64,000 bases of DNA from assembly GCA_001804285.1 (NCBI GenBank), contig MHFR01000068.1:103230-167229 (forward strand), read 5' to 3'. Of the stretch, positions 8,346 to 63,400 are shown piece after piece. Positions within the stretch are counted from its first letter, which is position 1. Every line of letters begins with the position of its first letter. Source of the DNA: Candidatus Danuiimicrobium aquiferis. Its GTDB lineage: Bacteria > Omnitrophota > Omnitrophia > Omnitrophales > Danuiimicrobiaceae. The position numbers and the translations under genes were made by a program. The notes under the pieces are model-generated. The model was given only the letters and a program-made list of their open reading frames with translations, ran no database searches and was not told the origin of the DNA.

Positions 8346-8497
8346 TTTGTTTAGCGCTTTGAAGTGATTATCTATAAAAGGTCGTCCGCTTTTTTGTCAT
8401 TCCCGCGAAAGCGGGAATCCAGCAACTATGGATGCCCGCTTAAAGCATGCGGGCATGACACGAACTGGCGTGTTCACCACTTCAAAACGCTAAATAG
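8346..8497. mobile_element. MITE-like element. Imperfect ~17-bp terminal inverted repeats (8350-8366 and 8478-8494) flank two internal hairpins.
   Basis: The terminal inverted repeats were read directly. The core contains the GTCATTCCCGC-GCGGGAATCC hairpin (8396-8420) and a second hairpin, ATGCCCGC/GCGGGCAT (8430-8459). The same core recurs at 37281 inside the giant ORF. Confidence 0.5.
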
Positions 8498-27510: not shown

Positions 27511-27555
27511 CCCCTCACCCCGCCCTCTCCCTGAGGGAGAGGGCGGGGTGAGGGG
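27511..27555. terminator. Perfect 21-bp-stem, GC-rich palindrome after the asmA-like gene. No U-tract follows, so it may be a REP-like or factor-dependent terminator.
   Basis: The sequence reads cccctcaccccgccctctccc-tga-gggagagggcggggtgagggg. Confidence 0.55.
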
Positions 27556-30723: not shown

Positions 30724-30832
30724 TGTCATTCCCGCAAGCCGTAGGCGGGAATCTCATGCCTTTGGATTCCCGACTACCCCGGAAAAGCTGGGGCCGGCCC
30801 TTTCTTTCCCAAGGGAAGCATTCGGGAATGAC
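30724..30832. repeat. Structured palindromic element of the GTCATTCCCGC family, in the orn-helicase intergenic region.
   Basis: It has a local hairpin (attcccgc-aagccgtag-gcgggaat). It also has a long-range inverted repeat (gtcattcccg at 30724, cgggaatgac at 30823). Confidence 0.5.
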
Positions 30833-30910
30833 AAGAAAACATTGAATTTGTTTCATATTCTTTGTCATTTGCGCTTTGATATTGGTCATTTGGAATAAAG
30901 CGAACGATCC

Positions 30911-35857: not shown

Positions 35858-36163
35858 ATGAAACCTATTGATCTTAAAAATGATGTGAAATATTCCAAAA
35901 ATTCAATTGTCAGCAAAACATTGGTTGATAAAAAGGCGGGAACGCTCACATTATTTGCCTTTGATGTCGGGCAAGGGCTAAGTGAACATAAAGCTCCGTA
36001 CGATGCTATTGTCCAAGTTGTGGACGGAAAAGGTGAATTTTTTATCGCAAATAAGAAGACAGAGGTAACGGCCGGCGAGTTGATGATTATGCCAGCTAAT
36101 ATACCCCATTCCGTTCGAGCCAAAGAAAAGTTTAAGATGTTGCTGACAATGATTAGGTCTTAA
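35858..36163 (+). CDS. Cupin-domain protein.
   Basis: The 101 aa ORF carries a cupin_2-like G(X)5HXH...E motif region (GQGLSEHKAPYDAIVQVVDGKGEF). Confidence 0.7.
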   Translation: MKPIDLKNDVKYSKNSIVSKTLVDKKAGTLTLFAFDVGQGLSEHKAPYDAIVQVVDGKGEFFIANKKTEVTAGELMIMPANIPHSVRAKEKFKMLLTMIRS

Positions 36164-36243
36164 AGCCATAAGTTGTTTGCCTGATTATAATTAAGATAAA
36201 AAAGGAATTAGGCAAAAAAACACCTAAAATATAGCCCGTTCCA

Positions 36244-36272
36244 TTGCAAAATAACACCTTATCTGGTATACT
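36244..36272 (+). promoter_or_regulatory. Candidate sigma70 promoter of the giant gene.
   Basis: TTGCAA (36244-36249) is followed by a 17 nt spacer and TATACT (36267-36272). It lies about 147 nt upstream of the ATG at 36419. Confidence 0.4.
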
Positions 36273-36418
36273 TTCTTCACGCCTTTAAAAAGGCTCACGC
36301 CAAGGTTTAAAAAAGGGTTATCAAAATTATTAATTTCTCACAGGGGGAAATTTTTTTACTTTTTTATTGTTTATTGGGTGAAGAATTTAACGAAAGGACT
36401 ATTTTGTAAATATCCTTC

Positions 36419-39400
36419 ATGGCAGGTTCGACGAAACAGTTTATCTTAAGAATTATTGCGGGCGTTACATTATTGGCATTTTCAGTCAACCAAATTGGTT
36501 ATTCCAACCCAAGCCCGACTAATTTTTCAGCCCAACCGGTTACAGAGGTTCCGCTTCCGAATCCGGGATTCCAATTTTCGATTCCTCCAGAATTGGGGAC
36601 CGTTCAAAACCTGACATCCGGGTCGGGCGGCACGATCGTTCACATTCAAACCGCGCACGGAAATTACGAAGCCGAGAAACAAATTCAAGCGATTCTTCAG
36701 CATCTTCATGATCATTACGGATTTAATCTTTTACTTCTTGAAGGCGCCGGTGTCAAACTGAAACCGGAATTACTTCAATTTTTTCCTCAGAACAAAATCA
36801 AGACGTTTGAGCTTGCCGACAAGTTAACACACAAATCGCTCATGAAGGGTGCTGAACTATTTCTCATGCGGGCAAAGCGCGCGAAAGCATTCGGAATCGA
36901 AGACCTTAAAATATACCGGAGGAACCGGCGCGCCTTTTCGAGAGTCATGATGCGGAAAAAAGAAGCCGACGGGTTTTTGGAACAAATTGACCGGGGGATT
37001 AAACATTTTTCAGCTTTGTATTTGAATAAAGAACTGAGGACATTTTTAAATGAGTCGGAAGATTATGAAATGGGCAAGACGCCGCTTTTAGCATGGATCC
37101 GGTCGCTACAAAAAAATGCGGAGATTTTTTTAGATCTGGATTTATCCGATCCGAAAAATCAATTTCATTGGCCGATGACGCTTCGCCTGTTGAAATTGCA
37201 GGAGCTTGAGTCAAAGATTGATACGGAAAAGCTGGCGGAGGAGAAACGGAATTTTTTAAAGAAAATAAAACCTTTATTTGTGTCATTCCCGCAAAAGCGG
37301 GAATCCAGAATGATGGATCCCCACTTTCGTGGGGATGACAAGCAGTCTCGGATTGCATCGCCAATGTCCGGGACGACGGCTCGCAATGACGGCCGTCAGA
37401 ATAGGGGACAGGCAGTTCATCTGCCTGTCCCCTATTCTGGCCTGTACACCCAAATCGAATCCTTGCTCACGTCTCCCGCAAATATCCAGAATGAATTACC
37501 GGATCCCGAAACCGGACTTCTGTTCGAGAGGATGGCATCAAAACTTCCGAGGAATTTTAATTATCGCATGTACCCAAACCTGAATTATTTCATCGGCCGG
37601 TTAATTCTCCAAAGTGAAATTAAGGGGGAACTGTTACTTGCGGAAACCAATCATCTCGAAGAGTTGATTGTGAACCGCTTAGCGCAAAAAGAAGACGAAA
37701 AACAGCTTATGGAATTGCTCCGCGATTTTCATCTTTTAAAACGGTTATTCGCTTTAGCGCTTACGCCGGAAGATTACGAACAAATGACGAGCGATATCGT
37801 CCGTCATCCTGAGCCCCCAAAGGGCGAAGGATATGAGGAAAAGAGATTCTTCGCACTTCGCGCTCAAAATGACAGATTTCGTCCGAGAAACATGCTGCAA
37901 TCTTTTAACGCTTTAAACAAGGATAATCATGTTCAGAATTTACAAGTTGCTGGAATAAAAGATATCGATCTGCTCTATGAATCGGCTCTCGAATTTTATC
38001 GAATAGCGAAAAACCGTGATTGGGAAATGCTCGAAAATATTCAGAAGCGGATGAATCGGCTCGGTGAACGAAAAGCGATTGTCATTACTGGCGGTTTTCA
38101 TGCAACACCCTTCAAGAATTTCTTTTCTGAACACGGATATAGCTATGCGCAGGTTCGCCCCAAAATTTCCTCAACGGACGGATTCCAATCCTACATCGAC
38201 GCCATGCTTCAAAAATCCACGCTCGAGTCCCCGTATGTTTTCAGTATTCCGCCGGCAGAATGGATAAGGCACGGAATCAATCCAAGTTGGGTGAGACAAC
38301 AATTTTCTGCTGCGATGCGGGGGATGGCGGAGCGAAATCGGTCTGAAACGCGAAACAAAACAGGTTTACAAAAAGGGGACAGGCAATTGCTCAACAGGAG
38401 TCATATGCCTGTCCCCTTTTTGACTGACCAAAGCGCGCAAGAGTCCTCGATACGTTCCAAGGAGCATGTATCGAGGGCCGAAGCGCGCGGAAGAGAAGTC
38501 ACCAGTCGCCAGTCACTGGTCAATAGTGTTCCAGTGTCTAGTGATTTAGTATTTCAGGTAAGGGCTGAAGATTCCCGCCAGGGGCATGCGGGAATGACAG
38601 TAGAGCTCCATCGCAATGACGGTGCGTCAAGGGCCGAAGTCCGTCAGACGAAACAGGCGGAAATTGATACCCCGGCGTTTTATGCGGAATTGCCTAAAGC
38701 GCAATTAAGAAAAGTGGCATTTGCAATTCAGTTTTTGTTTGAAGATTCGTTTGCATGGCTTCCTCACGAAAAAACAGACATCAGCATCCCCAATATTGAG
38801 TCCGAACTGAAACGTTTACCGAATTACAAACTTAGGAACGAAGAAGAACTCGAGCGGATGCTTCCCAAACTGCGCCTCACAAACAGGGCAGCGCTTGTAC
38901 AATTTCTGGCGGTGTTAGTTGCATTGTTTGACAAAAAGGATGAAGAACGTGAGGCGGCGGAAAAGGCTGTGACGGAAACGGCTGAGGTGAAAAGCATAGA
39001 TGCTTCTACAGATGTTTCTCCTGAAGCGAAAAAATCGAAGTTATTCCATTTCGCTTTGCGTTTTATGGGGTTGGAAGAGCTTGTGCGATTTCGGACGATG
39101 AGGCGGACGAGCGGAGCGAGTAAGGAAGAGGAGAGGGCAGAAGATAAAAAAACGGATGCTTCGGTTGAAGCAGGTGAAGGAAAAGAACCGGATCAACCCG
39201 TTGACCGGCGGCCAACGAACGAAAAAGACGCTGCATTTTATACTCGAGATCTATATTTAACAGGCGGGCTGTCCCATCAAAACGCCTTGTCTAAAATTCT
39301 TGCATATCTTAAGGCCGGAATCGGTGATGTTGAAAGTGATTTGTTAAGGCAGCCGGTGTCGGATGTCCTTAAAACCTATGAGGATGATTTTCATCAGCGG

Positions 39401-42400
39401 GTTTTGAGCAGGGAGAAAATGCCATATTTTCAGGAAGTGGTTCCGGGTTTTGAGTGGCGCACTACCGTCCGGGATTTTCTTACATTGCATTGGAACCGGA
39501 TTCATTGGCCCGTTGTTTTATATCGTTTTATAGGATCGGATCCGGGCCGTTTTTTATTTTCAGCGCCTGTTTGGTTCATGATCGGTTCCTTTATCGGAGG
39601 GCTGACTGTCGCCGCTGCCTTTGCCGTCATTGTCAGGTATGTCTTGCGGCCGCTCTATGAAGGCGTGCTGTTTAACTTGGAAGCCAAAGCGATGAAACGC
39701 TATCGCGCAATGGCGTATGAGCCTTTTCCATACGGCCCGCATTTTATTTTTCAAGGAGATGATCTTTGGCGGAATGTCCGTCAAACCTATTTTCAAAGTG
39801 AATCGCTGATGCTTCCTAATGAGAAAAGTAATTCAGTCTTGAAGCTTTATGCGTTGGAACATGTATTGAAAAAATATCCTGGAACAAGGAAATATCGCTC
39901 CATTGTCCGTCGAGTGCGTGAGAGATTGTCATCCTCGTCTGAGTGGCCTGATATTCATGATGCGTGGACGATGGTTCATAATGCTGCAGTGCGCCAACGA
40001 ATTCAGATGAGTGATCCGGGCGTTAAGCTTATTCTTTATGTTCTTGAATTACCGGTAAGAGCGCCGCCGGCGACAGAAGCCCAAAGTCCACAAGGAAGGC
40101 GCAATTTTTATCAGCGATTGGTGCTGTTGATCCGCCGTTTGATTTTGATTGCTATTCAAAATGCAATTCTTCAACCCTTCCGGATATTGAGATCGTCTGT
40201 CTACTCTTTGAATTTGCGCGCAACTGCCCGGTTGATTGAGAAAATCGAAAATCGCATTAAAGCGTTTTTTAAATATCCTATCCGGGAATATTCAAGTGAA
40301 ATGTTCTCAAGCCGCAGCAATACGCAGGTTAAGAGTGTCATGGGCCTCCCTGATGAAGAGAAACGAAAACAAGAACTCATTCAATACTTAAAACAATTCA
40401 ACATTTCCGAGCTTGATCCTTTGATTGCGGAAATAGATCAAAGGCTCCATCTGAAATTCGACCGGTTTTTTGACAAGGAATGGTTCTCTCAAGCATTTTG
40501 GAATACGTTAACGGGGAACAGAGTTGTTTCCAATAAGAAAAGGAAAAATAAGAGCGAGGAAGCTATTGCTGAAAAACTTAGAGTTTTAAACGCACAATAT
40601 GAGTTTGATTTAGCCAATCACACGGTACTCCTCAATACCGAAATGCCGCTTTTTCTGAATGCGTTCATTTTGGTCAAGTTGGCCTCTCAACTTTATCAAC
40701 ACCATGTTGTGCGCGGAGAACGGGAAAATATCCATCTTCCTCCCGAAGAGTTGGAAAGCATTCCGAAGAAAATGTTGATGAAACTTTTCTGGGATGCGTT
40801 TAGAAACGGTAAGAAATATTTTAGTGACACGAAACAGCCGTATATGGGCAACTTGGCGATTTTTATCCTGATGATGGTGAAAGCGTGGGGTTGTAAAGTT
40901 TACTCATCGAATGACAAGCCGGGGATTCTTTACATTAAAACACATCGCATTACGATGCGTGCCATGATCAAGGCTAAAGAAGGGTTTGTTATCGGGAGCC
41001 ATTATCTTTTAGGAAAACGTTATCTTGGGATTACAAATCAAAAAAATTATCCTTTGGCAGAAAAAAAACACGGAGTTAGCAAGAAATTAAGTGCCGTATA
41101 TTCTATCCTTAAACCATTTTTTCCGATCCTCTCACAATTTGCCTGGATGCTGGGCTATTTGACTGCGGTGGTTGCGCTATTTAGCGGATTTTTTCTGCAC
41201 CTTGATTTAAGTTTCGTGATGCACTATTTGGATCAACTTATTCAGTGGCTGTCCACCATTGATTTTTTTGATATTGGGCCGATGATTGCGGCGATCTGGC
41301 ATTCAATTCAATCTGCGTACCATGATCTTGCGGCTGCGTTCAGCCAGATCCTTCATTATTTATTCGATATTGATCTGACATGGCTGAAACAGTTTTTCCA
41401 TGACCTGTGGCAAAGCCTTGAGCCTGTCCGTGCGTTTGTTGAAGATTATCTGGTGCCGTTTTTTTATCAATTTCTCGTACCCGCCCTGATTTTTGGATGG
41501 GGAATGATTTCCGGATTTCTTGCTTATAAAGTGCAATTAAGACAAAGGTTAATTCAAGTGGGAGATTACTTTATCTCTTTCGGAGCTCCAAAGTTGATTG
41601 CCTGGTTCATAACGGTTCCCGCTGTAATAGCTGCAACAACCCTGAATTTGAATACGGATAAAATTTTTGAATTTCGGGAACGGATTGAATCCGCACTTCA
41701 GACGAAATACATCGTTAAACCATTAAGTTTGATTTGGCATATGTTGGCCAATCTATTGTATGCAGGTTCTTTTCTCTTCGGCGTTGGTCTTTACTTTTTT
41801 ATGATGTGGCTGATTATTGATCCACAGCTTGGATTGTCGGGTTTAGCGGGCGGATTGCAGAGCTTAGGTTTGCCGGTACCGCCGATTGTGTTAATTGCCT
41901 ATGTGGCCGGCGTTGTTAGTCTTCCTTTTTCTTTTGTGTATGTTGTCTCGGATTTATTGATGAAAAAATTACCGGAACGCGGATTGTTTTCGGGCCGGCG
42001 AACTGTGTGGGGAATGATTGCGTTTTTGGGCGTGTTTGCCGTGATTACGCCGGTGGCTTTGAATTATACATTTCGTTCAAATTGGATGCGGTCAGATTAC
42101 GTTGCGAAAGAAAAGGCCAGGACGCTTTATGCAAAGCCGAGTATGGTTTATCACTATAGTTTGATGGGCAAAGAAGAGGCAAAGTTGAAAATTGAAGAAA
42201 TGAAAAAGGAACAAACTCAAAAAATTGAAGAAGTGAAAAAGGAACAAACTCAAAAAATCGAAGCGTTTAAAGCACAAATAGAACAAGCAGCGAGTCAACC
42301 GGCATATCCGTCAACGATAAGCCGGTTTAAGAAAAAAATAGAAGAGTTTTTTAAGCAGGACGACAAGAAAAAAAAGGTGAACGCGGTTGAAAGCAATAAA

Positions 42401-45400
42401 ACCGCAGAAGATATGCAAGCCTTCGTCCATTTCTTTTTCGAACGATTTTATCGATTTCAGAAGTATAAGGGTATGGAAAATATTGTTGATCCGGAAAACG
42501 GCATCCTGCTGGTCAAGACTATAGACGAGTTGAAATTGCATAAACAGGATATTTTGACAGCGATACAAAATAAGAATCGCGCAGTATATGGCAATATGCT
42601 TTTTTGGGAAGGACTATTCCGAACATTTGCTGTAAACGGTCCTGGTTTTTATGATGCGTTTACACCTGACGAATGGAAAACCGTTCTCAATCATGTTTTT
42701 GATGTGTTGGAGGGGAAAGTGCATTATCGGCATTTTCGCCAGCGTTATTTTGAAGAGAGGAAAGCACTCAATGTTATTGATTATTTTCTGTGGGGTAATT
42801 TATCGAGCTTGCACCGATTGCATCTTTATTTTGAGGGTGTTGGGACGGTGAAAGGCGATTTTCAGAAAGTATCCATTCTCTATCTAATGATGGCTGATAG
42901 TCCGTGGGGGTATGTTTTCCCAAGTGCGGATCATTTTACCGTATTAGATCCCGATCGTTCGGGTCTATATCTATCATTTTTTGAAGATCCGTCGATTGCG
43001 GTGGGGATTCCGGAAAATCCTTGGGCAAAATCCAATTCTAAGGGGGGGCTTCCTACTGCAAAAGCACCGCGTGTTGCCGTAAACGTTTCACCGGAAATTC
43101 GGAGTTTAATGGTTGAAACGATTGAGCGCCTTGTCAAAACAAAAACAGGGGATCAAGATGTTCAGTCTTTTATTTATTCCAGAAACCTTTGGTTTAATGG
43201 ACACAATACTGCCGATTTTTTGAAATCAGATCTGTTAAAGCAGGCTGCTCCGGTGAGGCCGAAACCGCTCAGCACAAAACCTTACACAACAACCAAGCCG
43301 GCAGAACGATCCGGAAACGTTCAGAGCCAGGGGCGGGCTGAAGTGCGCAATGTCACGCCAAAAACGGGGACAGGTTCTGTATCAGTGAAACCAGAACCTG
43401 TCCCCGTTCTGGCGAGGGCTGAAACTCGCGACGAAGCGTTGGGAGGGCGAGTGAGCGTGAAGGAAGAAGATGTCTTTAAAGGATCGAAACTTCTTAAATG
43501 GCTTGGTGCCGCGTTTTGGGGGTTGGGTTGTGCGGCGTTTCTTTATGGCGCATACGGCGTTATTTCGCTTTCGGATCTTTTTGTTTCCTACTTGCCGGTG
43601 CTTCTTGAGGGCTGGCTTATTATTGGAACTGCCGTGCTTGTCAGCCATTACAAAAATCAGTTGCAATATTGGACGCGGCTTTCATTGATGACCGGTGCAA
43701 CCGTGTCCGTTTTCTTGCTCTTTCACAAACTCGCCGCTTACTACTGGCCGGTGTTTGGTTTGAATCCCGACATAAAGCTGTCAACAAGCATGATCGTCCG
43801 CTTGCCATCTATCTTTTGCGGAGTTTTTATCAACGAGTTGATTCGGGTAAAAAGATTTTTTAATTTCGAATTCAAATTAGGCTGGGAAGAAGCGAAGCCC
43901 CATTTTATCAAGGCATTTAAATGGGCGATTTCTTACGGAGCGATTACGGGATATTATTTTTATGTTGTTTTGTACGGCTTTATCGGACCGTATATTCCAC
44001 AGGCGAATTATTTTCCGATGATGACACCTGATATGGGGACGGCGATGATGAAAATGTTTTTTGACCTCGCGGTGACGACGCCCCTTGTCAATATTTGGAC
44101 CGTAAGTGCGGTTAGTGTGGCCTTCGGAGAAGAGGTGGATGTTGCCCAAAATTGGAGAAACCAGCTGGAGGGTTTTCTGTTATTTTATCCTTTAACATCT
44201 CTTTATTGGATGGTCGCGCTTTCTATATCATGGTTTCTCTTCCCGGATGGCCTGGATGGTTTTCAGGCCTCTCATGCGCTTTTTTCCACTCTTTGGCAGA
44301 TAGCATTGCCGGTATTTATTGTTAAGTTTTATATCGGAAACGGAAAACGCGGCAAGTTGACCGGTCAAAAGCCTGCTCCGGTTCCTCATCTCATATGGGA
44401 AAACCAATCGGTTTCCGCAATATCCCGCAGAGTGGACGTGCGTCCCAAGAACGCAAACACAGGAATTACGGTAAACCGCAGCCATCTTCGTGCTTTGGCA
44501 ATCAATATGGTATTTGCCGGAGGAGCTGTGGCGGATAAAGCGGCTCAATGGGCGCTGAGTAAAACATTGCCTGTAGCGGCGAAATTGCTTTGGCCCGGAA
44601 AACCGCGGCGATCAAAGACGTCAGACCGTTCCGAAGTTCGCAACAATGAAAATAATGCCAAAACGATTGTTGATCGAGGCGAACAAGAGTCCTCGATACG
44701 TAGAGGGCTTGTATCGAGGGCCGAAGCGCGGCAGGAGGAATATGAAGTCGCGAGTCAACCGGCGGCTCCACATATCAGGAATTTGAAGCAAGTAGTCACT
44801 GATGTTCAAACAGCGGTTTCCGAACTCAATATTCGCGGCCTGGAGGTTTTTGTTTTCGGTTCGCGGGCAAATGGGAAACCAAGGGATGGTAGCGACTTGG
44901 ATTTGATCGTTTTAGTTTCCGAGACCATGGATCAGGCTGCTGCCATGGCGATTATTTGGCAAAATGATGAAATTGAAAAACGACTTTCAGAAAAGCTTAA
45001 AACAAAAAGAGATTACCGTGTGCAATTTCACGATATTAATCCGGCAACCCGGCGGCACTATTTTTATTTGTGGAAGACTCGACAGTTTTTTAAAAAAAAT
45101 ACCTATCTTTGGTTTGTTCAGGCAAATTCAATTCAAGGGTTTGAATTGCATGCAGATGGAGTTGTTCCGGTGGATCTTGATCGACTGGAAAGTTTAACGC
45201 CGCTGCCGATCAATCTTGCGAACGATATAGCAGGCTTATCTCCTGAACAATCTCGGAGTGAAACGCGGCAAATGGGATTCGCAGAAGAGGACGAGGAAGA
45301 CTCTGACGATGACTTCATGCTCGATGGTGAAGACCTGGATATAATGCCTGGCGAATTTTCAGTGAAGCCCCAACCGCCTTCCGGGGCTGCCAATCAATTG

Positions 45401-48400
45401 AGTGGCGGCAAAGAAGAAAAAAATAAGGGAAAAAGATTTCCAGCGGCGCGTCCTGATGATTATCCCTCTCCGGTTCGATCCATCATTTCCAGTGGACTTA
45501 AAATTGACGAGGACACCTCGCTTCCTTCTGCCCGACGGTCCGAAGTTCGCCTCAAAAAAGATAGTACAGAAGCGATGCTTCATCAAGGCGCACGAGTGTC
45601 CTCGATACATCCCAAGGGGCCTGTATCGAGATCCGAAGCGCGCAACATTTTACAAAAAGGGGACAGGCATATGACTCCTATTGAACAATTGCCTGTCCCC
45701 TTTTTGACTGACCAAAGCGAACGAGAGTCCTCGCAGTTGCGGCGAGGGCCAAAGGATGCCGCTGCGAGGGCCGAAGTTCGGTCGGATTTCAACAACGCGA
45801 CAGATGAACAAATCATGACTGCGCTAAAACAAATCGGGTTATCCGAGCGGCAAACCCGGAACCTTTCCACTTATCTTTCGAAAATCAAACGCGTTTTGGC
45901 ATCGGGCCGGCGGTTTCGATCGCATGAAGAACTCCGCGTATTCATGGCGGGTGTTTTGGGGGTGCCTGAATTGGCGGCGAAATTCGCAGATCATTTCTTT
46001 GAAAAGTCTGCTTCTCAGCCTGCGGCAAAGCCCAACAAAGCTCCTTCAAAATCATTTCAATTTAATAGAACAGTTGAACAGGTGATCGGCAAGATGCCTT
46101 TTAGCGTGAATGTTTTGTCAGGTCCGAACAGGAAAAAACTTTATGACGGAAAATACGTTCCCAATGTTGTTCAGGTTGCCAGCCTTGGCGTGAGAGAAAG
46201 AATAGCAGCAAGGCACATCGTCTATTCTAAATTTCTTGATGTGTTGGAAGAGTATACACACCTGACAGAAGCAGAATTGCTTCATATGGGTTTTGTCTAC
46301 AGGCAGGGACCTTCATCTTTATATCTTTCAGAAGTGGTTCGTCCTATTCTCCAATCAACCGGAGCAAGTCATGAAGCGCAATCGGCTTTGGCTCCGGCTA
46401 TTCTGGAAATTGCCAAAAGCATGCGCGAAGCCAAAGCGCTCAGCGGGGATGAAGTGCTTAAAGCCATTTTTTCTAATTTGGGTGGGATCGATGGACAATT
46501 CAGCCAGCTCATCGCCTATTTGAACCACATTCAATTTAACAAAGGGAAAAATCCGCGGCTGAAAGTGCCGGATGAGAAAGTACAAGAAATAAAATCCATT
46601 GGTGAAGTGGAAGAGATAACGATTTGGTTTGTTAAAGCCGGGTTCCTTACGAGTGTCGCAATGGCAGAAGTTAAATTCAAAAGTAGTACAAATCGAGCGC
46701 CCATTCGTTTTGCGATTAATGTCGCTAACGATAGAACGATTTCCGCGGAGAAAGTGAGGAATGCATATCGTCATATGCGAGCTGATTATGATTTAGATTC
46801 CCGGTTTGTTGCTGAACCGATTGGGTTGGGAACCGAGATTGCGCCGGTGATCATCAGTGAGTGGGTCGAACAGAGTGACGAACTTCATTTGTATGCGGAT
46901 ACCGGATTTCAGCAATTCCAGGTTTGGAGCGGCCAAAATATGCACAACAACCAAAAAGTTTCGCTTCAGGACTCCCGGAAAATTTGGCGACAAATTATTC
47001 AGATACAAACGATGTATTCCGGGGTGAGGCCTGACGGTGCCGGGATGTCACGGCCATGGATCAATCGCGGGGATTTTGTGCTGACGCGTGATTCGCAAGG
47101 GGAACCGCGTGTTGTATTAATTTGGGATGACAGAAGTAATCTTGTTACGGGACAGAAGATTCCGTGGGACGCTATTGATAGCGTTGTCAACAGTTTGATT
47201 TGGGGGGAAGTTGACCCGGACAGCGGAAAATATATTTGGGCAGATGATCCGGAATTAGCGATTCGAGCGATTGAAGACGGGTATTTAGAGCATAGGCAAG
47301 ATAAGATGGAGGCGAAAGCTGAACTGATCGAAATTCTTAAGATGGTCTATAGAAATAGACTTCCTGAAATTATTAGGCAGCCTTCTGTCATTTCGGCGGG
47401 TTTTGATGATTTTGATCCTGCTGAACTGGATCATTTTATTTCTGTCGCTAAGCATGCACACAAAGTGCTGGGCGAATTTTTGCAGCAACGTTCTGAAGTT
47501 CGGGAAGAATCTTTTGCGGTTGACGGTGAAAAAGACCTCACCATTGAAGAAATCGATGCGCAAATGAAGACGGACGGCTTTCCGGAAATGGAATGGTTAT
47601 GGAAGACATTCAAAGGGATGAAAATATGGAAGGGCGTAAAACTCCGGCGTATCAACTTAGCCGATATTGATCCCGGAAAAATTCAAGAGATGCGCACCAG
47701 GCATATGGGCGGTTTATTGGCGCGTCCTTTGGTCATGGCTTTGATGTCGGTTTCCATTATGTGTATTGCACTGTCCGTTTTTATGCTTTCCGTTTCTGCT
47801 CTGCAAGATGTCATGCTTTCGCTGCAGGGCTATCCTGTGGGTGATTGGCATAGTTTCTGGAAGAATAATGTCGAACCGATTTTTCGGATGTTTCGCAATC
47901 CGCTGATATGGATGGCGCTTTTATTTTCAACGCCGGTGGTTTTTTTGCCGGCAACGGCAATCAAGCGGGCGTTTCTGCTGTCCTGGAAGAAAATTTCCGC
48001 ATTGGACCTTGCGTTTATGTTAAGCAAACGGAATTACCGGGAATGGTTCGAGCAGACGCCGGGGGCGCAACAAACGGTCGCCAAACTTCGCGGCATGGGA
48101 ATCAATGAAAACTTTGATAATCCTGATTATGCTCGCCGCTATCGCGCCACGACCAAAGGTGTTGTGGAAGTGCCGATTCCTGCTGTCCCCAACGTTCATG
48201 CCGTTCTGAAGGAGGTACTCGGGGAAGTGCGTGATGGAAAATACGAGCGGGGCAACTACACGACCAGTCTAAAACACGGAAGGAAATCCGTGACGGCTTT
48301 TGTCGCGCAGAATAAAAGGGAGGTTGAGCTCAGCAAGCCGCCGAGGCCCAGGTATGCGTGGCCTATCCCTACGTTCATCGGCTTGCTCATGGGTTTTTAT

Positions 48401-54400: not shown

Positions 54401-57400
54401 TTTTCGCATGAAGGGTTGGCGCAGCCTTCGATGTACAATGCGGCGAACAATGCTTTGGATCTCCGGGTGAAAAACATAGCGCGCATGAAAGAGCTTCTGC
54501 ATGCGATTCCTCAGGATGAAATTGATGAGAAGGAACTGGAAATTCTTCTCCAGGTTTACATTGCGTCTGTCTCGACGATCTTCGGGGTGGCGTTTGGAAA
54601 AGCCTGGGACCGGGAAGATTTCGATCAACTAAAAGTACTGCTTGACGGCAAAGGGATTATTTCACGAAAAGTACTGGATCAGCTTGGTGCGGAGGGAAAT
54701 GTCCGGCCTGTCAAAGAAGCGATCCCGATCGCCGCGCTCAATGAAAGGTCCTTTGAATTTTCGCTTTCCTATTTCTTTCCCGAATTATCACCCGAACGCG
54801 TTTTGCATCTCGCGGTTTTGGGTTACGAGCTTTTTGATCGCATTGCCCGGGAAAACGTGATCGCCAACCGCACGTATGATGCCTGGCTGCTATTGAATAT
54901 GGTTTCAAGCCGTTCCTTTGATTCAAACAAAAATGTGAGAAATCACAGGGGGCTGATTAACAACCGTTTTCACACCGCGCCGATGGTTAAGGCGCTTGAT
55001 GATCTTCACGCCTGGCTGAAAAAACAAAATATAGATACCTCAACGGTAACGTATCCATTTTCCGGAACGGATTTGACCACAGCGCTTTTACTGACGGATG
55101 CATCAACTATCAGAATGTATGATGCGCTTCCGTTTGGAATGGATATGAATCCGCGTGACTATGAAGCCTATAAAATTTCCTATGTCGCGCATAAAGCGGC
55201 AAGCGGAATTATTCTCGACAATGTGGCGAGCGCGATCGGACACGCAAAAACGCCGCTCTTATGGGAGCTCGAGGCGATCGGGGCAAAAGACATTAAGATC
55301 GAGTTGGACGATGAAGACGTGAATATGTACCGCATTCATTTCAAATGGGCCTACGACAAAGATTCCCCTCTCAAGGAGCGGGTAATTGAATACCGGGAAT
55401 GGATTTTTGAAGAGCAGGAAGACTTTGACGGGGCCGTGGATCCGAAACGCGATACCGTTTATTTGCATAAAGGAACGATGGCAAGCGGGATTTATAGTTC
55501 CAAACTTCCGAACGTGATTATTTCTTTCGGCGGTGAGACCGTCAAGGGTTATCAAAAGATTCCGGTAAAGCGGATTATCCAAATTCCGGACCCGAAAAAG
55601 TTGGCGCCTGCCCACACATTCCGGTATCCCCAAATTTCGGAAGCGGCTGTGCTTATCAAATCAAAAGTTCCCCTTGAGCTTGCTTTACGCCCGGAAGAGG
55701 AAGAGGGAATTCAACCGCTGACAGCCGAGGAAAAGGACGCGATCCAAAAAAGCATTTCAATTTCTAACGGTGTCGCTGAGGTTTTGCGGGAAGACAAAGG
55801 AAGTATTTTGTTAACGGGTGAAACCGATTCGGCCCATCTTTTTGGAAAACGCCTGCAGTATCGCCAGATACCGGATGATTTAAAAGTTTCTGCGGTTCCG
55901 GCCGAATTGTACAAAGGCAAAAATGTTTTGGTGGTGCCCGGATATGGAAATCTTCCGTTCACATTAAAAGAATTGGGCGCCAGAAGTGTTGTAGCCATAG
56001 ATAAAGATCCGGGTGTTATAGCGTGGCAGCGAGCCAAACAGATTTACGCGGGCGATCCTTCAGTCCAAGCGATGAACCGCGATGAGGCCAAAGATCCGAA
56101 TGAATCACTGGAACGGCTTCACGAACTGGTCATGACGGACGCTGAGCCGATTGAGCCTGTGGACGGAATCCGTTTTGCAGCTGCTGATCTGACAGAAAGA
56201 CTACCGATTGAAGACGACAGCATGGATTTGATTGTCGTTCCTTATTTGTTTGGATTTGAGCGCGGGATTACGACGGTGGATGGTTTCGAACGCGGCCTTG
56301 CCGAAATTTTGCGCGTCGCGAAGCCGGATGCTACGATTATCATTTTGCCTTCCGGACTTTCAGACGAAGCGCAGTATGTGAAGGGAAGTAAACTTCCTGA
56401 ATTTTGTCGCTGGCTTCGGGCACAGCAGGGATTAGTCATTCAGGAAAGCGCGCCAATCCCGCTCTATAATTATTTAGATGATCCGGCACGGCAGACTACG
56501 CCGCCGCTCGGCCATTACGCGGCGATTTCCAATCAAGGGCCTTCTATTTTTTATGGAGACACCTACGGAAAGTTAACGCCTTCTGCAGGATCCTTTTTCA
56601 GGTCATTAAATCAGGAAATCGGCGGCTATCACAGCAAATTTCCGCAATATTACCGTGACCACATTGCAAACAGCCATGGTCAGATTCTGAAAGGTGCGGA
56701 AGGCTTGTCAGGGATGGCTGTGGTGCTGGGCCTCGGGAATGGAATCGATATTCCGTTGAAATTGTTGGCAAAGCAGTTTGACCGCGTCATTGTAATTGAT
56801 TTAGACGCGGAAACGGTGAAACAGACCGTGGCGAAATTGGACGAAAATCTGCGGCGCAAAATCGAAATCAGGGTGGACGACCTTTCCGGGATTCTGCCGG
56901 AATTCTCGCACGAGGTGGATAAAATTGTAGCAGAGGCTCCGAGTCCGGAGTCGGCGAGGGAACGCATTCTATCGTTGGCGAAATCGATAGAAATCAGGAA
57001 GAACGCTCTGGCGGGCGTTAAAGCATCTTATGTTACGTCGTCTGTTGTTCTTTCACAGCTTATTTTTACTGCGCATCAATATGCGGTGGATCAAATGCGA
57101 AAGCGGTTTAGCGTTGATGAATCGTTTCTGACCAGCTTTCTGGATTATCGAAAAGCATTCTTGTATGACTTAATGGTCAAGGTGGCGTCTCATTATTTGA
57201 GCAGCATTCATGGAACTGTTCAGCCTTCCGGACGTGTTTATTTTGCGGACGGGCTTCACGAAACACCCGTTGAGGAAAATGCTATAGGCGTCAGGCGCGG
57301 GCTTGCTCAGCCTGAGCCAAAGATTCCGGTTACGGTTTTTGAACTGATCGAACAATGGTTTACAAGGGACATTGCTCAGCACACGTATTGGGTGTGGGAC

Positions 57401-60400
57401 AATAAACCGCCTAAAGTAACCCAAGATCACAAGGGCTCTGTTTTGCAGGAAGTAAGCGATATCCTTTTGCCGAAACCCGCGGGCAGAACACAAACGACAT
57501 TGATCTATTCGCCTCCGGGGGGTGTTGATCGCAGCAGTGATCCCGCTTGGCAGAGTCTTAAGAAGAAAGCTGATTTGTATATTCATCTTTGGGACGAGCC
57601 GCTGGTCAAGAAATTTCAGCGTTTGAAACCGGAGCGTCTTGCGCCGACGGGCCGGAATTATTCTCATCATGACTATTCGCCCAATGTTTTTGGGGCGGAA
57701 GAAGAGAGAATCCATAAAGAGGCCATCCGGTATACGGAGAAAGGCGTGACTTTTTCAGAGGATTTTCAAGGCTCGGCCTTTGTTCTCATGGAACCGGGCG
57801 AAAATGATGTGATAGCGACGGCCATTGAACAGCCCGGTTTTGATGATCCTGAGATTGCTTTTATCGGAGAGAAAAACGGAAAATTAGTTGTCGGCGGAAC
57901 GCAATATTTTAATCCATTGTACTACCGGTACGATGACTTTCTGAAATTTCTATTAACAATGATTCAGGATCAGGGGATCCAATTGAAAGGACTCATGATC
58001 GGACATGAGGATTCGCCGAAACAGGATAACGCTGCCCGGCATTTTGTTGAAGAAGTGACTCGAATGGGAATTCCAACTGTCAGTTTTCCGCCCAGAAAAG
58101 AACCCGGTACGATTTTAGTGACGAAAGAGGGGATTGCGCGGCTTCACTTCAAAAAACGGGAGCATGCCCAGACTGTGCGAGGACCGAAAGCGGATCAAAG
58201 CGATGCTCGTTTGGAATTAGAGGTGGATCGATCGGCTACGGATCTCCGTTTGTGGAAAGATTTATTTCCTGAAGAGAAGACTTCTGACACACAACCGGTG
58301 AAACGTGACGTCTCGGGCGATGATTTGGTCAGAAAACGTTATTTGGAACTTCTCGATGACATGGAAAAAAGATTAGCTGAGCCGGTTGAATCTGAGAAGA
58401 CGTTACAGGCGCGGCTGGTCCGGGATGAAAATGAATTATCGCTTCGCGTGACCTATCAAAGAGAAGATCGCGTGTCTCATGTCGTTGTACGGTTTGATCG
58501 GCAGAAAGAGAAGGCGGAGGTGCGCGGATTTGCGGAATTGGTCGGTGAAGAGGACGTGACAGCCGCCGGAGTTAGAGGACGCATTGGCGTTCCGCTCGGT
58601 GAAGTGGATATTTTAGCGGCACGATACCGATTTGAGGGGGAAGTATCCCTGAGTGAAAGTGAAAGCAATTTTCGTAAGGGTTTAATGGACATCCTTCGGG
58701 CTGCAAGAGTAAAGGTGCTGGCGCATCTCTATCCGGAATTATCCCGCCCGCAGGATCGAACGGTAAAAGACAGTTCAGAACAGCCGAGATATCCTGTGCC
58801 TGGGAAAGAAGAAATCATCGAATTTTATGAAAAGCATGGCGATGATGGTTTTATCTATTTACCAAACGGTGCAAAGGTTCCGGTCGGAATTTATCAGCTG
58901 GATGACAAGACGCTGACGTGGTACCGGGGTTTGATTAATGAGTTCGGAAGGAATCTTAAAATTCTTTCCTTGGGTTCCGGCCGCGGAAAATTGGAATCAT
59001 TGCTCAAAGAAGACGGTCATCAAGTGACGGCCGTCGATTTAAGTCCTAAGAATGCGAGATACGCCGAAAAAGTGGGAGTTGAAACCGTCCTTGCCGATGC
59101 ACATCACCTGTCGCTTCCCGAAAAGGATTATGATTTGGTGATCGTTGTGGATTCTCTTGGTCAAATGGATCCGCCCGTCATTTTCCAACGGGCCAAAGAG
59201 CATCTCAAGGCCGGCGGATGGCTCTTTGTGACGATGGTGAGAACGGAAGCGAAACAGACACGGGAGGGATACGAAGTGACCAAATATATTCTCTACCCCC
59301 GGGGGTATCTCAATCATGAACTCACGAAAGCCGGTTTTGCCCCGACGTCAGAAGGGATGCTTCCGACGTTTGGTGATCCGCGCGGAATTACGTTTGAGTA
59401 TCACAATGCCGTGTATCAGCCTGCCCGTTCCGAAGCGCGGGCGCTTAAGCCGTTTTCCAACCTTTTTTGGTGGAGGAGTGAAAGCAATAAAAGGTTGAGA
59501 GAAGTGAAACATCAATGGAGTCGCCTTGAGCGGTTACTTATCAAGAAAGGAGCTAAACTTCAGGTTCAATTGGCGAGTTTTTGGCATGAAGAAGGCGAGC
59601 ATACGGATTTGCCGGATATGGATGTTTTGGCAGTGAAAAGTCTTTACAGCGGAACTGCTTTTGCGAGCTTTGAACTGCCGCAAGGCGCAATTACACATTT
59701 TTTGAAGGACGAAGAAACCTCGCTTGTCGCGAGGGGAAATCCGTTTTGGGCAAAATTTATGAGAGTCGCGAATGAAACTGTTTCTGAAAAAATGTTTGGG
59801 GTTGACGATTTTCGGGAAGCGTGGCGGACATTGAGAAGGTTGCGGCTCGAATATCGAAGGAAGGAAAAAAAGGAGCCGGTGCCTTTTAAAGTCAATCTTG
59901 CCGATCCGGTCATTTCCTACCGGAGTCTTGGTGTCGAATCAGATGGTTCAATTCGTCGCGATGATTTATTTGATTACTTAAAGCTCTCCGATAAACAAAG
60001 AGAGGAATTGGCCAGATATAAGATCGTCGAGATTTCTTCCGAGCAAAATCCGTCGGGCCGGGGAAAACTGATTTTATATTATCCCGTTAGCGCGGAAACG
60101 AAGAAATTAATCGAGAGGATCAAATCGCGATATAAAGAAGATTTGCGACAGCTTGGTTTTGCGGGCGGAGAAGCGGCGGATGAATTTATTCTTGAGCAAT
60201 TTCTTACGCCGGTGTTGATTGCTTTACGGGATGTGGTTCAAGTCCGCAAGCTTGCGGATGTGATTGCGCGGTATTTAAATGAACAAGGCAGTTCGAAAAT
60301 GCCGAAGGAGATGAAGGTCGTTCATGTCGGCGGGCTTTATCATTATCGAAGCTTGCAGAAAATTCTGGAGGCAACGGGGCTTTTCGAAGACGGATTGGTT

Positions 60401-63400
60401 TTTGAATTACTTGATCCTATTTTTGAATCGCGCGAACATATTCCGGATTCTGAAAAAGGAGTGCAGTTTTTTGCGGATCGAATTCCGGACTTAATTGATC
60501 ATACGTCATCAAATGGCAGTGAAATCCTTTTTGGCGATGCGTATTTTCTCAAGTTGTTCGGCGACTTCCTTAGAGAAACGGATTTTTGGTATTATCTGGG
60601 CGTTCTCAATCTGAAAGATAAACAATACGCGGCCTCCGTGAAAGCATTTGAAAAAGCGTTAGAACTTCACCCCGACGATCCGAGGATCCGGCAAGTGACG
60701 AAGACCTTCAAAAGGGCTGCTCCTGCATTCCACAACCTCGCGTTTATCGAACAAAGCCGGAAAGATTTCATCTTAGCGGCCGGTCATTATCGAACAGCCG
60801 TGGCTTTAGATCCTTCTTTGTTTCACGCATGGTTTAATCTGGGCAGAAGTTTGGGAAAATTAGAAAGGTTTCTCGATGCTGCGGAAGCGTTTCAGAATGG
60901 GTTGCGAGCTCTCAATGATCGCGAAAAAGAAGATCAAAAATTAGCAAGAGACTTTTGGGAACATCTTGCGGATGCCTATTCCCGGGCCGGAAAAGTGAAA
61001 GCAAAGGATTACATTTTAAATGAAGTACTCCGAAAGAGAACGCAACTTCCCACTAAACAAGAGTTGTCAGTCTTGTTTGAGAAATTAAATACTGTCGGCG
61101 AAAAACGTGCCGAAGTGCGTCACAATGAAAATAATGCCGAAGGGATCATTGACCAAAACGCACGAGTGTCCTCGATACGCTCCAAAGGGCCTGTATCGAG
61201 GGCCGAAGTGCGTTCGCACGCTCCTTATATTCCTATTTTTTCTACACGAACTGAAATTGCCCGTGCTCATGCTGTGATTAAACGGAGTACGGCCCGGAAT
61301 AAAAAAGTAAAAGAATCGAAAGCGATGATGGTATTGCTGCCGACAAAAGACGGGGGTGATAAGCTTCCTCTTTGGTTTGAAAGAACGATGGCGGATTTGA
61401 ATAAATTAAAAGGCTACCATATTGAATTGATGATTGCGTCGAACGGGTCCAGTCCCACGGATAACGCTCATGAAGTGATTAAAAATATAGCAGCGCAATA
61501 TATTCCCGAAGGAATTCCTGTTACATATATCCATATCGAACCGGACGTTGGCAAAAACGCCACTATTAATGTTCTGTATGAAGAAGCGTTAAAACGTTAT
61601 CAGGAAATTAAAGCGGAAAAACAAGCAGCAAAAAGTAAAAAGGGAACTTCTGATTTCAAAATGTTTCTTCATTTCCTTGATGACGATGTTTATTTTGGTC
61701 AAGACACCGAGTCGCAAATCGGAAAGAATATCAAACTTTTGGAGGATCCTGAATTCGCGCAGAAACGTACTGGTGTTGTTCCGAAGATTGTTAGTACAAC
61801 GCCTGTTTCACCGGTTATTCGCGGTGGGTGGAGTTTGTTGGACACTTGGAAATATTATTTTCAGCGCATGACGAATATCCGGAAGCAAGCTTTGGGCATT
61901 CCGCTTGTGCAAATTTACGGGCAATCATACACTATTGATATCGAAGATTTTCCCAAGAGCGGTATTCCTGACGTGCTGAGTTATGAAGACGCTTATTTAT
62001 CGGCGTTCTTTTATCCACATATGGTGACCAATCCTGATGCTACTCATGAACACGCTGAGCCTGCGACATGGGGCGTTTTTATGTCCCGTTATTTGAGGGA
62101 CGTCCGTCATCGTGCCGAATTAGGAAAGTTTTTTAGTTATGATCCGGCATTGAAAGAAAATTTTGACCGGTTTATCGAAGAGAGAAGAAAAAGCCATCGT
62201 GTACTGACCGAGGCATTAAAGCAGAAATTTCAGTTTTCTCCGATTGATCGAATGTTACTCAAGCTGAATTTGGGGTTGAAACATAGGCTTGACAAAATTT
62301 ATGCACAAGGGAAGGCGGAAAAATATTTGGAGCAAGAAGGGCCAATGATCAGAGGGACGAATGTGGGCAATGTGGACTTGATTAGCGTGAATCCAAAAAC
62401 CTATGGAATTGCCACGAAAGAAGGTGTGATTTATACGGAGCCCGAGCAGTTATGGAATACGGTTGTCGCGATGGGGCTTGATACGGATTTGAACAGACGT
62501 CTAAACATGGGCGAAGTTTTGAAAACGATTGCCGACAACCGAAATTTAAGCGAGGAAGATAAAGTTCATTTGAAGCAAACATTGGAAGAAATTTGGCAAA
62601 GCTTTGGAAGAACACCCGCGGAGGAATTGACAATTGAGGAATTTGCCGTATTTCTTAATGATCAGCGAAACCTTGGTCCGGGAGCACGGTTTCTTACCGA
62701 ATATTTAATTAATCAAAAATTATTTTTGCTTTATCATGCCAGCCATCAACGTGATGATTGGTTGCTTGCCTATTCTGCCATGATTAAATTGATCGGTTTT
62801 ATCCGTGAAGAGGCAACGATTGAAGATTTGCGTGAATTGCTTCGGATTGCAAGAAAATCAAATATTCCGATCGCATATAGATTATTGGCAGAAGTGATGG
62901 ATCGGGTCATGCAATTGGAGGAACCTATCGAAATAGCGGGACAATCTTATCGAGTCATGGAAAAAATAGAAGGCGGATTTGTGCTGGCCGATGGTGATCC
63001 TCAAAAGTTTGAGCCGACTAGGTATTATGTGGCGAGTCATATTGTTCCTGCTGAACATGCCCGGTTACAGCGGATGAGCGAATTGGAGCCCGTTCATTTT
63101 GTAAAACCCATTGTTTATGATGAAGTACTCCGAATTCAGGTGGCAGACAGAGTGAACGGTCAGGGGTTTAATGATTATGTGAATCGCTGGCACCGCGTAT
63201 GCAGCTGGCTGGAAATTGCTATTCAGATCACCAAATCGGCAATCGCTATGCATCAGCAAGGATATGTTCATGGTGATCTCGCGCGGCCGTATGGTGTTGT
63301 TACTTTGGATCCGGAGCAATCGGATCAAGTGGTGTTGACAAATACCGGTCTGGCCGAATGGGCCGGGCATTTATCCGAGCGGGCGGATGTTTATGGAATT

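Follow-up and report, generated by a model that had tools for sequence, protein, structure and literature searches.

The window analysed here, a 64,000-nucleotide stretch of Candidatus Danuiimicrobium aquiferis (Omnitrophota; contig MHFR01000068.1, positions 103,230 to 167,229 of the forward strand), ends in a giant open reading frame (ORF) that contains three classes of short hairpin repeats, designated A, B and C. Most of these repeats lie in short spacers fenced by copies of the peptide motif R-[S/A]-E-x-R (hereafter RSExR), which is the organising feature of the locus. It was absent from an earlier interpretation made from the letters alone (the sequence-only reading), in which the palindromes were taken for mobile or proliferating DNA that had colonised the coding sequence. 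From position 36410 (ATG at 36419) onwards, the plus-strand frame of the giant ORF runs through the rest of the window without a stop codon (9,194 codons), whereas the second-longest stop-free stretch in any frame of the window comprises 742 codons.

36419..64000, plus strand: giant ORF of at least 9,194 codons, running past the window end; called from the stop-free frame, in-frame domains and Omnitrophica homologues
36419..38338, plus strand: head domain (aa 1-640), N-terminal, interrupted by two element-derived inserts

The modules strung together in the giant ORF are unrelated: the head domain, transmembrane-rich regions, a nucleotidyltransferase, HAD, HD-GYP, methyltransferases and TPR, together with glycosyltransferase-like and kinase-like regions. 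Pfam and NCBIfam domains lie in frame along its length, those for nucleotidyltransferase, HAD, HD-GYP, SAM methyltransferases and TPR among them, and the protein belongs to a large Omnitrophota family of multi-module proteins. Very long 'multi-enzyme' ORFs have been described in this phylum (West-Roberts et al., 2023; 2026 complete-genome preprint), and the window ORF shares both the phylum and the architecture. Post-translational cleavage has been proposed for these giant genes, and their first survey asks explicitly whether it is the transcript or the protein that is cut. The two papers point to C39 and S8 peptidase domains, neither of which was detected with Pfam or NCBIfam in the part of the ORF that lies in the window. 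The words palindrome, hairpin, linker and polyprotein are absent from both papers, and neither describes the RSExR motif or the head domain reported here.

RSExR is a peptide-level feature, because its codons vary synonymously (CGG, AGG or CGT; TCT, TCC or AGT). The giant ORF has 19 in-frame copies of the form R[SA]E[VAT]R, at sites within 38339-61213, as opposed to three in all other frames of the window; for seven giant-ORF fragments, the counts of the motif are 59 in frame and two in the other five frames together. Among 154 family members (P0001-P0154; 438,423 aa), R[SA]E[VALTM]R occurs 743 times against 8 expected by shuffling, an enrichment of about 90-fold. It is present at least once in 124 of the 154 proteins, most commonly as RSELR, RSEVR, RSEAR or RSEMR. 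In 80% of the family proteins the first copy is found at aa ~548-667, immediately behind the head domain, and distances from motif to motif peak at 100-200 aa. The flanks are unconserved, except for small residues before and acidic residues after the motif. Given that element-type peptides are nearly absent from the 154 other family members, the motif is old and family-wide, and the hairpins are recent in this lineage.

We call a segment a bracketed spacer if the motifs at its two ends are separated by at most 80 aa; such segments account for 5.6% of the ORF length. They contain 21 of the 33 perfect hairpins (stem of at least 9 bp) in the seven fragments (p~1e-18), or 11 of 23 when the ascertained class C copies are set aside. 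Structure is likewise pronounced at the level of whole spacers: 17 of 30 fold with z<-2, and many carry recognisable peptides of the class A, B, C or GTCATTGCGAG type. In another organism, a spacer reads RSEMR-NFKANKG[VIPVQTGIQLDSRFRGND]KQ[KGDRHMTQVERLPVPFF]GKLETQL-RSEAR. Three spacers of the window, and an example of a solitary motif, are as follows.

38339..38488, plus strand: spacer RSETR ... RAEAR with an inverted class B (38369-38422) followed by class C (38433-38488)
43334..43429, plus strand: spacer RAEVR ... RAETR, holding a class B variant
51251..51412, plus strand: spacer RAEVR ... RSEAR with a half class B (51283-51293), a full class B in forward orientation (51323-51376) and the right half of a class C (51385-51412)
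47489..47503, plus strand: solitary RSEVR; other solitary motifs start at 45254, 49364, 50264 and 59426

These three spacers fold with z of -7.4, -6.7 and -5.8, respectively. The first falls within aa 629-700, which in an AlphaFold model of aa 1-700 have a predicted local distance difference test score (pLDDT) below 50. In a second model, pLDDT is about 90 in the core of HD-GYP and drops below 50 at aa 4942, which precedes the RAEVR of the third spacer by three residues, staying there to the end of the model; the HD-GYP module ends where its free-standing homologues end, about 12 aa before this RAEVR. The idea that RNA structure accompanies every RSExR was rejected: solitary motifs have a z of -0.20, compared to -0.11 in the background (p=0.21). 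In a distant relative (L001, 13199-13273), two strong hairpins (dG -37.6, z ~-5.5 to -5.9) arise in the spacer RSEQRQVAQT...RSEQR, with the RSEQR codons themselves as the 5' arm; RSEQRQVAQ recurs in the family protein P0037.

The second place in which elements have piled up is the head domain. Homologues of aa 1-640 are annotated as Candidatus Omnitrophica, and an exhaustive search returned 6,283 cluster representatives, 653 of them with E<=1e-30; in nearly all relatives found, the domain is N-terminal, and the proteins measure 1,000-7,800 aa. It has no Pfam or NCBIfam match, and a PDB sequence search with the family profile found nothing. Its fold is of the Tiki/TraB/ChaN/erythromycin-esterase (Ere) type and, judged by eye only, the conserved HIQTAHGNxEAQ and ITGGFHA stretches of the alignment resemble the histidine motifs of these proteins (GxxH...E...GxxH). 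That the head domain is a protease acting on RSExR is speculation. Two segments, aa 287-345 and 463-498, are missing from most orthologues; these are 35-45% identical, so that the insert boundaries are approximate. Insert 1 consists of a class A dimer, a partial element and a class B hairpin, and insert 2 of a GTCATCCTGAGC element.

37281..37339, unstranded: class A convergent pair, TGTCATTCCCGCAAAAGCGGGAATCCAG then GGATCCCCACTTTCGTGGGGATGAC; first part of insert 1, matching the SRM pattern (see below)
37340..37390, unstranded: partial element ending in CTCGCAATGAC, of the GTCATTGCGAG family in reverse orientation; middle of insert 1
37397..37439, unstranded: class B, short-loop form with a 19-bp perfect stem and 5-nt loop; end of insert 1
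37803..37873, unstranded: GTCATCCTGAGC...GCTCAAAATGAC element, a relative of class A; insert 2, aa ~463-498

The class A pair has a fold z of -6.5 as RNA and -7.9 as DNA. The class B hairpin (dG -42.6, z -11.5) resembles intergenic copies of other Omnitrophota, and the reading frame of its left arm differs from that of the long-loop copies. Of the checks named in the sequence-only reading, those on presence or absence in orthologues and on disorder of the encoded peptides came out as follows. Most head domains are without inserts, and the orthologue at locus L002, a complete 1,055-aa gene, carries different elements at the same two sites: independent GTCATTGCGA...TCGCAATGA units with dG of -54.8 and -68.4 and z of -6.8 and -6.6, which are full members of the GTCATTGCGAG family and differ from the occupants in the window. 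In the AlphaFold model, the core of the head domain scores 70-90, and pLDDT is below 50 at aa 290-338 and 459-483, in the inserts, as it is in the linker peptides.

The existence of three palindrome classes in the giant ORF, as claimed from the letters alone, was upheld at levels far above chance, with the exception of the consensus given for class A. Perfect hairpins with stems of at least 10 bp number five in the giant ORF (codon-shuffle mean 0.77, maximum 4), one in 32.8 kb of other coding sequence and six in 3.6 kb of intergenic DNA. The peptides quoted for the elements, for example DSRLRGNDR, are all found in the translation of the ORF.

Class A in its original form, GTCATTCCCGC-loop-GCGGGAATGAC, has no match in the window; left-facing and right-facing units had been fused into one. 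The true unit is an oriented hairpin, GTCATTCCCGC-loop-GCGGGAATC, together with its reverse complement, and often occurs in convergent pairs. In addition to the pair in insert 1, we located the following copies; those in intergenic DNA (8395 and 30724) substantiate the claim of intergenic sisters for class A, whereas no intergenic copy of class B or C is present in the window.

38567..38599, minus strand: class A, one SRM unit in reverse orientation, part of the spacer RAEAR(38474)...RAEVR(38630)
38610-38620: partial ATCGCAATGAC end, following the preceding unit
52596..52652, unstranded: class A convergent SRM pair of 57 nt, 52596(+)/52625(-), encoding ...SSSGLTGGSMDSRLRGND; no RSExR flanks
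8395..8460, unstranded: class A intergenic sister, convergent SRM pair 8395(+)/8428(-), between two ordinary genes
30724..30833, unstranded: class A intergenic sister, GTCATTCCCGC...GCGGGAATC ... GGATTCCCGA...TTCGGGAATGAC, between ordinary genes

Scanning with the degenerate SRM consensus HGTCWYN(0-2)YYVSBRHN(0-5)WNVSBRGN(0-2)RNCYNB returned six matches in the window (8395+, 8428-, 37281+, 38567-, 52596+ and 52625-), compared to 0.135 expected from first-order Markov resamples (maximum 1). Three of the six are within 1-2 mismatches of the Neisseria NTS, CGTCATTCCCGCGMAVGCGGGAATCYRG. The units fold as hairpins (z -4.2 to -7.9), and the non-palindromic 5' flank GTCAT, which orients them, is present as TGTCAT at every unit. 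Class A is found on both strands, is read in more than one frame and also occurs between genes; the frame of the dimer varies among related giant ORFs, yielding ILSSPHAVGGDPWIPASAGMT in one copy and NVIPAKAGIQRDSRLRGND in another. By its sequence and predicted structure, class A is an SRM/NTS-type hairpin. The degenerate SRM pattern covers relatives of the Neisseria NTS (dRS3/NTS) in many phyla, and the hairpins are cut as single-stranded DNA by small GIY-YIG nucleases called Ssn (PMC11893778). Class A shares with this system the NTS sequence, the SRM pattern, the GTCAT flank and the hairpin. In N. meningitidis, however, 2% of NTS lie inside genes, whereas four of the six SRM matches of the window are inside one ORF and translated, and Omnitrophota are not mentioned in that study (PMC11893778).

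Class B was found at all five ORF sites for which it had been reported. Four copies have the exact form GGGGACAGGCA-loop-TGCCTGTCCCC (37404, 38375, 45659 and 51329), for which shuffles expect none, and the copy at 43363 is a variant with a 17-bp stem of its own, AACGGGGACAGGTTCTG / CAGAACCTGTCCCCGTT. In total, the giant ORF holds five to six copies.

43363-43408: class B variant hairpin in the spacer 43334..43429; left arm in the third frame (TPKTGTGS)
45653..45706, unstranded: class B, long-loop form with A5/T5 flanks, forward

The loop at 38375 is the reverse complement of those at 45659 and 51329, showing that both orientations are present in the ORF. The arms are translated in three frames (KGDR, RGQA and TGTG), only stop-free frames are in use, and both strands fold equally well (z -7.8 to -11.5). 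When the A5/T5 flanks are counted, the long-loop form has a 17-bp stem. The 11-nt core and its inverted partner occur in at least 116 stretches of the genome collection from many phyla, including Omnitrophota, Planctomycetota, Acidobacteriota, Firmicutes, Coriobacteriia and Caulobacter, with differing loops and outer stems, and on several contigs of single metagenome-assembled genomes (MAGs). At loci L003-L118, the core GGGGACAGGCA sits in the loop or bulge of variable local stems, such as CGTGCAAA-GGGGACAGGCA-CTTTTGCACG; the conserved part of class B is the unpaired core rather than the stem, and it looks like a protein recognition site. At 12 loci of other Omnitrophota, eight copies are clearly outside ORFs, several of them either between convergent genes or downstream of a stop codon by 2-32 nt; of the other four, three overlap nothing but short ORFs of doubtful status and the fourth is part of an ORF of 481 codons.

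These properties make class B similar, as far as sequence can tell, to REPINs. REP/REPIN-RAYT systems are defined by a transposase gene that is flanked by the repeats (PMC3116915; PMC3337134), and class B shares with them the inverted pair of cores, the long hairpin, the multiple copies, the extragenic position in other Omnitrophota and the occurrence of its core beside Y1_Tnp (IS200-like) genes. The latter arrangement was seen in Niallia (L089) and in a Nitrospiraceae MAG (L083), with Pfam E-values of 1.9e-14 and 2.9e-10: in the former, a class B hairpin lies 26 nt from the end of the gene and a core 250 nt upstream, and in the latter, cores are found on both sides. Genes that recur beside class B at the 116 loci form small clusters, of which the Y1_Tnp cluster (3 loci) alone is relevant to mobility; no Y1/RAYT gene was seen at the 12 Omnitrophota loci. 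REPs are extragenic by definition, whereas the copies of the window are all inside the giant ORF and in frame, and the class B core is common to many phyla although stems and loops differ. Class B also has features of a terminator, namely the A5/T5-flanked stem and the position 2-32 nt after stops elsewhere; here it is part of an ORF. A promoter and terminator scan of 36000-55999 gave no enrichment, and class B was left uncalled because its 20-nt loop is beyond the limits of the scanner.

Class C differs from A and B in that all copies found lie in giant ORFs. Its five reported ORF sites were likewise recovered, three of them as exact CCTCGATAC-loop-GTATCGAGG hairpins (38445, 44691 and 61170), one with a single mismatch (45600) and one with a changed and nevertheless complementary stem, CCTCGCAG / CTGCGAGG (45727).

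44627..44731, plus strand: class C cassette RSEVR-NNENNAKTIVDRGEQ-hairpin(44691-44719)-RAEAR
45536..45643, plus strand: class C cassette RSEVR ... hairpin(45600-45631, one mismatch) ... RSEAR
45718..45781, plus strand: class C variant with compensatory stem CCTCGCAGC.../...GCTGCGAGG, ending in RAEVR; 63.5 bits
61106..61213, plus strand: class C cassette RAEVR-HNENNAEGIIDQNARV-hairpin(61170-61201)-RAEVR with outer helix AACGCAC/GTGCGTT; 87.3 bits

Scanning metagenomes for the exact stem yielded seven loci, six of them from two related samples (G+C 0.45-0.47). All six lie, in the same orientation and frame, in ORFs that have no stop over the full length retrieved (736-3,039 codons), and their peptides share the pattern R[AS]E[VA]R-x20-25-SSIRSKGxVSRAE[VA]R. 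A profile search added copies that had not been selected on the stem, with arms CCTCGAT/ATCGAGG and CCTCGC/GCGAGG, in addition to the copy at 45727; in the CCTCGC/GCGAGG copy the left arm is read in another frame (KSPRE, not ESSI). Altogether, 13 strong copies and two weaker matches were found, every one of them within a giant ORF, read in a single register from the sense strand and joined to the codons of the conserved peptide motif; the 3' arm encodes SRAE[V/A]R. The proposal that class C is a generic mobile element with intergenic sisters is not supported by this comparison.

In a two-helix test of the 13 copies, 86% of cells pair, whereas sliding the partners lowers this share to 29-46%. 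Both sides have changed in eight pairs, and the covariation score of 0.158 (versus 0.080) was reached by none of 500 shuffles; given that 10 of the 13 copies were ascertained on the exact inner stem, the unbiased share of this covariation comes from the outer helix and from the three copies found otherwise. Of the 13 copies, 12 have retained a U.G pair, and through one pair (AU 4, GC 4, GU 2) the Val/Ala codon of RAE[V/A]R is linked to a codon further upstream. Folding of the sense strand is more favourable than that of the antisense strand by 5-6 kcal/mol, and a covariance model scores 62-87 bits on the former and at most 21 bits on the latter. Each unit has at least one stop-free reverse frame, and the fixed orientation is therefore not just a stop-codon filter. 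Since the hairpin is kept on the sense strand while overlapping the SRAE[V/A]R codons, selection is likely to act on the nucleic acid; the pattern of substitutions thus indicates that class C is conserved at this level and is not an ordinary protein repeat. At 14 other Omnitrophota loci, namely the 12 with class B plus L001 and L002, the covariance model had no match, and Rfam at gathering thresholds reported no family in the whole window. Integron attC-like sites were considered for class C and dropped, as no integrase is present and the core sites mismatch. The RAEVR-coding flanks of the last cassette (61106-61120 and 61199-61213) share 12 identical nt (GCCGAAGTGCGT), those of other cassettes 6-10 nt; flanking RSExR copies could be target-site duplications.

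The giant ORFs of the metagenome are not orthologous to the window ORF. One weak head match (23-26% identity) was obtained; otherwise only the cassettes align, at no more than 65% identity over 35-40 aa. Because unrelated giant ORFs share only the cassettes, these spread independently of the modules. A search for orthologues in which the same modules adjoin (aa 4740-5250) brought up nothing but generic HD-GYP proteins and one near-identical fragment of this ORF, and a protein search with the 86-aa class C-B-C spacer segment (45536-45793) returned nothing, such ORFs being probably poorly represented in the index.

The explanation that we favour, with moderate confidence, is that hairpin repeats have accumulated at the DNA level in tolerant spacers of the giant ORF, much like Rickettsia palindromic elements (RPEs). 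From the observations above we infer how the repeats may move, that A and B may be neutral, and any role of class C. Unrelated modules would follow a conserved head, delimited by the old, family-wide motif, and the repeats would have piled up in the motif-bracketed spacers and the two head-domain loops. Classes A and B would represent widespread families that normally reside between genes (SRM/NTS, the Ssn substrate, and REP/REPIN-like repeats, respectively) and multiply as DNA, probably through enzymes acting on single-stranded DNA hairpins that are encoded elsewhere in the genome. Copies that survive in the ORF would be those that keep the frame, add no stops and contribute a disordered extra peptide that is tolerated; A and B would be translated passively, because copies survive only where the protein tolerates such peptide. 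Class C would be a lineage-specific cassette spreading only among giant-ORF spacers. As repeats at the DNA level, putatively mobile, A and B bear out the sequence-only reading: they show both orientations, several frames, intergenic sisters, families spanning many phyla and patchy presence in orthologues.

RPEs are short palindromes found between genes and in frame within genes, where they are translated and tolerated at permissive places (PMC10969869). The elements of the window combine in-frame insertion with intergenic copies in the same manner, and the comparison drawn in the sequence-only reading is fair as a description of how the repeats work. However, RPEs measure ~100-150 bp, whereas here each hairpin spans ~30-60 nt and each composite 60-110 nt; RPEs reside in ordinary metabolic genes, in contrast to the mostly RSExR-fenced spacers of a giant multi-module ORF; and their host is Rickettsia, whereas here several families occur together in a member of the Omnitrophota, and the sequences are assigned to families other than RPEs. 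The window elements work like RPEs but, judged by host, length and family assignment, are not members of the RPE family.

Several observations weigh against accumulation by tolerance. The strong clustering of unrelated hairpins in bracketed spacers could mean that hairpins are required there. Neither a RAYT gene (among the annotated ORFs) nor a GIY-YIG/ssnA gene (by a six-frame motif regular expression, a weak test, or among the annotated ORFs) was seen in the 64-kb window, and we saw no transposition event, no nucleotide-level empty site and no target-site duplication. In the data searched, the long-loop subfamily of class B was seen only inside giant ORFs, class C was not seen outside them, and the ascertainment of most class C copies on their inner stem narrows the evidence from covariation. 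The main rival is that the hairpins are functional nucleic-acid structures for the expression of the giant gene, with bracketed spacers acting as intercistronic regions: hairpins would stabilise or process the transcript, pause ribosomes or terminate uncoupled transcription, and the spacer peptide would be discarded by cleavage at RSExR. We regard this as possible but rather unlikely. It would account for the clustering of hairpins of at least five unrelated sequences in bracketed spacers and the 17 of 30 spacers with z<-2, for the covariation, conserved U.G pair and strict sense orientation of class C, for the A5/T5 flanks of class B and its terminator position in other Omnitrophota, and for the unrelated hairpin that L001 builds on RSEQR codons; and transcript or protein cutting is an explicit question in the literature. 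On the other hand, solitary RSExR sites show no excess structure, and most family members are without element-type peptides, so that the architecture does not depend on hairpins. For classes A and B, folding is equal on the two strands and both orientations exist, which is the expectation for DNA repeats rather than strand-specific RNA signals; three elements sit in head loops or elsewhere without RSExR brackets, and the simple terminator scan gave no enrichment.

Alternatively, the spacers could be fossil intergenic regions left when genes fused by stop loss, with old terminators and REP-like repeats now being read through. This scenario, which we consider unlikely, draws on the class B copies 2-32 nt after stops in other Omnitrophota, on modules that begin and end as their free-standing homologues do (HD-GYP ends ~12 aa before RAEVR), on the sequence Met-Met-Val-Leu-Leu-Pro after the spacer at ~aa 8303, on the head-module homologue that is a complete 1,055-aa gene, and on a hairpin density in the ORF that is nearer to intergenic DNA than to ordinary coding sequence. 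It is countered by the age of the module-RSExR-module architecture, to which the element peptides, nearly confined to this lineage, do not correspond; by the two inserts within a single conserved domain, which was never a gene boundary; and by cassettes that giant ORFs with unrelated modules have in common. The search for orthologues turned up none that has the modules as separate genes in this order. That the repeats are ordinary linker repeats of the protein, with incidental palindromy of the DNA, is very improbable, in agreement with the sequence-only reading: although all exact-stem copies of class C encode R[AS]E[VA]R-x20-25-SSIRSKGxVSRAE[VA]R and RSExR is a peptide-level motif with synonymous codon variation, one and the same element gives different peptides depending on orientation and frame, copies exist between genes and across phyla, compensatory changes in stems alter the peptide, and loops vary freely where stems do not. 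For A and B, which are DNA-level repeats, this explanation is largely refuted; class C is conserved as nucleic acid. An assembly artefact, in which a repeat-driven chimeric contig merely resembles one ORF, is scarcely conceivable. The repeats (50-110 nt, 75-94% identical) and the metagenome-type source would allow for it, but 27.6 kb free of stops in one frame are beyond chance joins, the repeat copies are not identical to one another, the same architecture recurs on six independent metagenome contigs with ORFs open over 736-3,039 codons, and a near-identical 887-aa fragment is present in another data source. Artefact and ordinary protein repeats are both effectively excluded.

The locus bears on the construction, expression and maturation of Omnitrophota ORFs of 10,000-150,000 codons, and it provides two handles on this question: the ~90-fold enriched R-S/A-E-x-R that marks module boundaries in a family of thousands, and motif-fenced spacers that behave like intergenic DNA in gathering hairpin repeats which elsewhere lie between genes. 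Should the motif prove to be cut, the products of giant genes would be polyproteins with disposable spacers, and selfish palindromes could live in them because the spacers are disposable. In a more far-reaching version, of which we are doubtful, giant Omnitrophota ORFs would be 'operons without stop codons', with RSExR cut by the head domain or another protease, the spacers excised and class C acting on mRNA or DNA. It is similarly doubtful that the excised spacers are the translated equivalent of intergenic space, housing REP- and SRM-type repeats, with class C stabilising or ending transcript segments, for example, in the manner of hairpins between cistrons. Processed polyproteins offer a comparison. 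MARTX toxins are multi-effector polyproteins with a cysteine protease domain (CPD). The giant ORF shares with such proteins, and with viral polyproteins, the unrelated modules, the recurring short motif in disordered linkers between modules and a hydrolase-like domain. However, MARTX repeats and the CPD were not detected with Pfam or NCBIfam, the head is only similar in fold to Tiki/TraB/ChaN/Ere, some of which are not proteases, and cleavage at RSExR is putative. A more modest reading is that translated palindromes of the RPE type extend to another phylum, to SRM/NTS and REP-like families and to giant genes. In the literature searched, we found no giant-Omnitrophota-gene setting, no case of several repeat families in one ORF, no confinement to RSExR spacers and no description of class C, the RSExR motif or the head-domain fold. 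For annotators, DSRLRGND, VIPAKAGIQ and KGDR...PVPF in such ORFs are repeat-derived peptides and not protein domains.

The 36 kb upstream of the giant ORF hold ordinary genes, including a glycosyltransferase/polysaccharide cluster, FeoB, AsmA, Dus and a cupin. Almost all genes of the window (1-64000) are on the plus strand, the GC skew is positive throughout and the cumulative skew climbs steadily, which is consistent with one replication arm carrying strongly co-oriented genes. Within the giant ORF, a 33-nt unit is duplicated in tandem at 42188-42253 (97% identical; KIEEMKKEQTQ / KIEEVKKEQTQ). An 887-aa protein from another data source (P0155) is nearly identical to ORF aa 5147-6033 (window 51857-54520); it starts at an internal Met, a few residues diverge near its end, and it is probably a partial gene call, made from this gene or from one very close to it. 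Five adjacent perfect hairpins with stems of 10-12 bp lie within 200 nt of intergenic DNA (962-1152) that separates the first two ORFs of the window; this cluster looks like a mosaic of REP-like units. A further intergenic palindrome at 27511-27555 is perfect over 21-22 bp (CCCCTCACCCCGCCCTCTCCCT / AGGGAGAGGGCGGGGTGAGGGG); a shorter CCCTCTCCC/GGGAGAGGG hairpin is found in frame in the giant ORF of L121, and the peptide LSPSPVLSLGERDGVRG in an RSExR-bracketed spacer of P0050.

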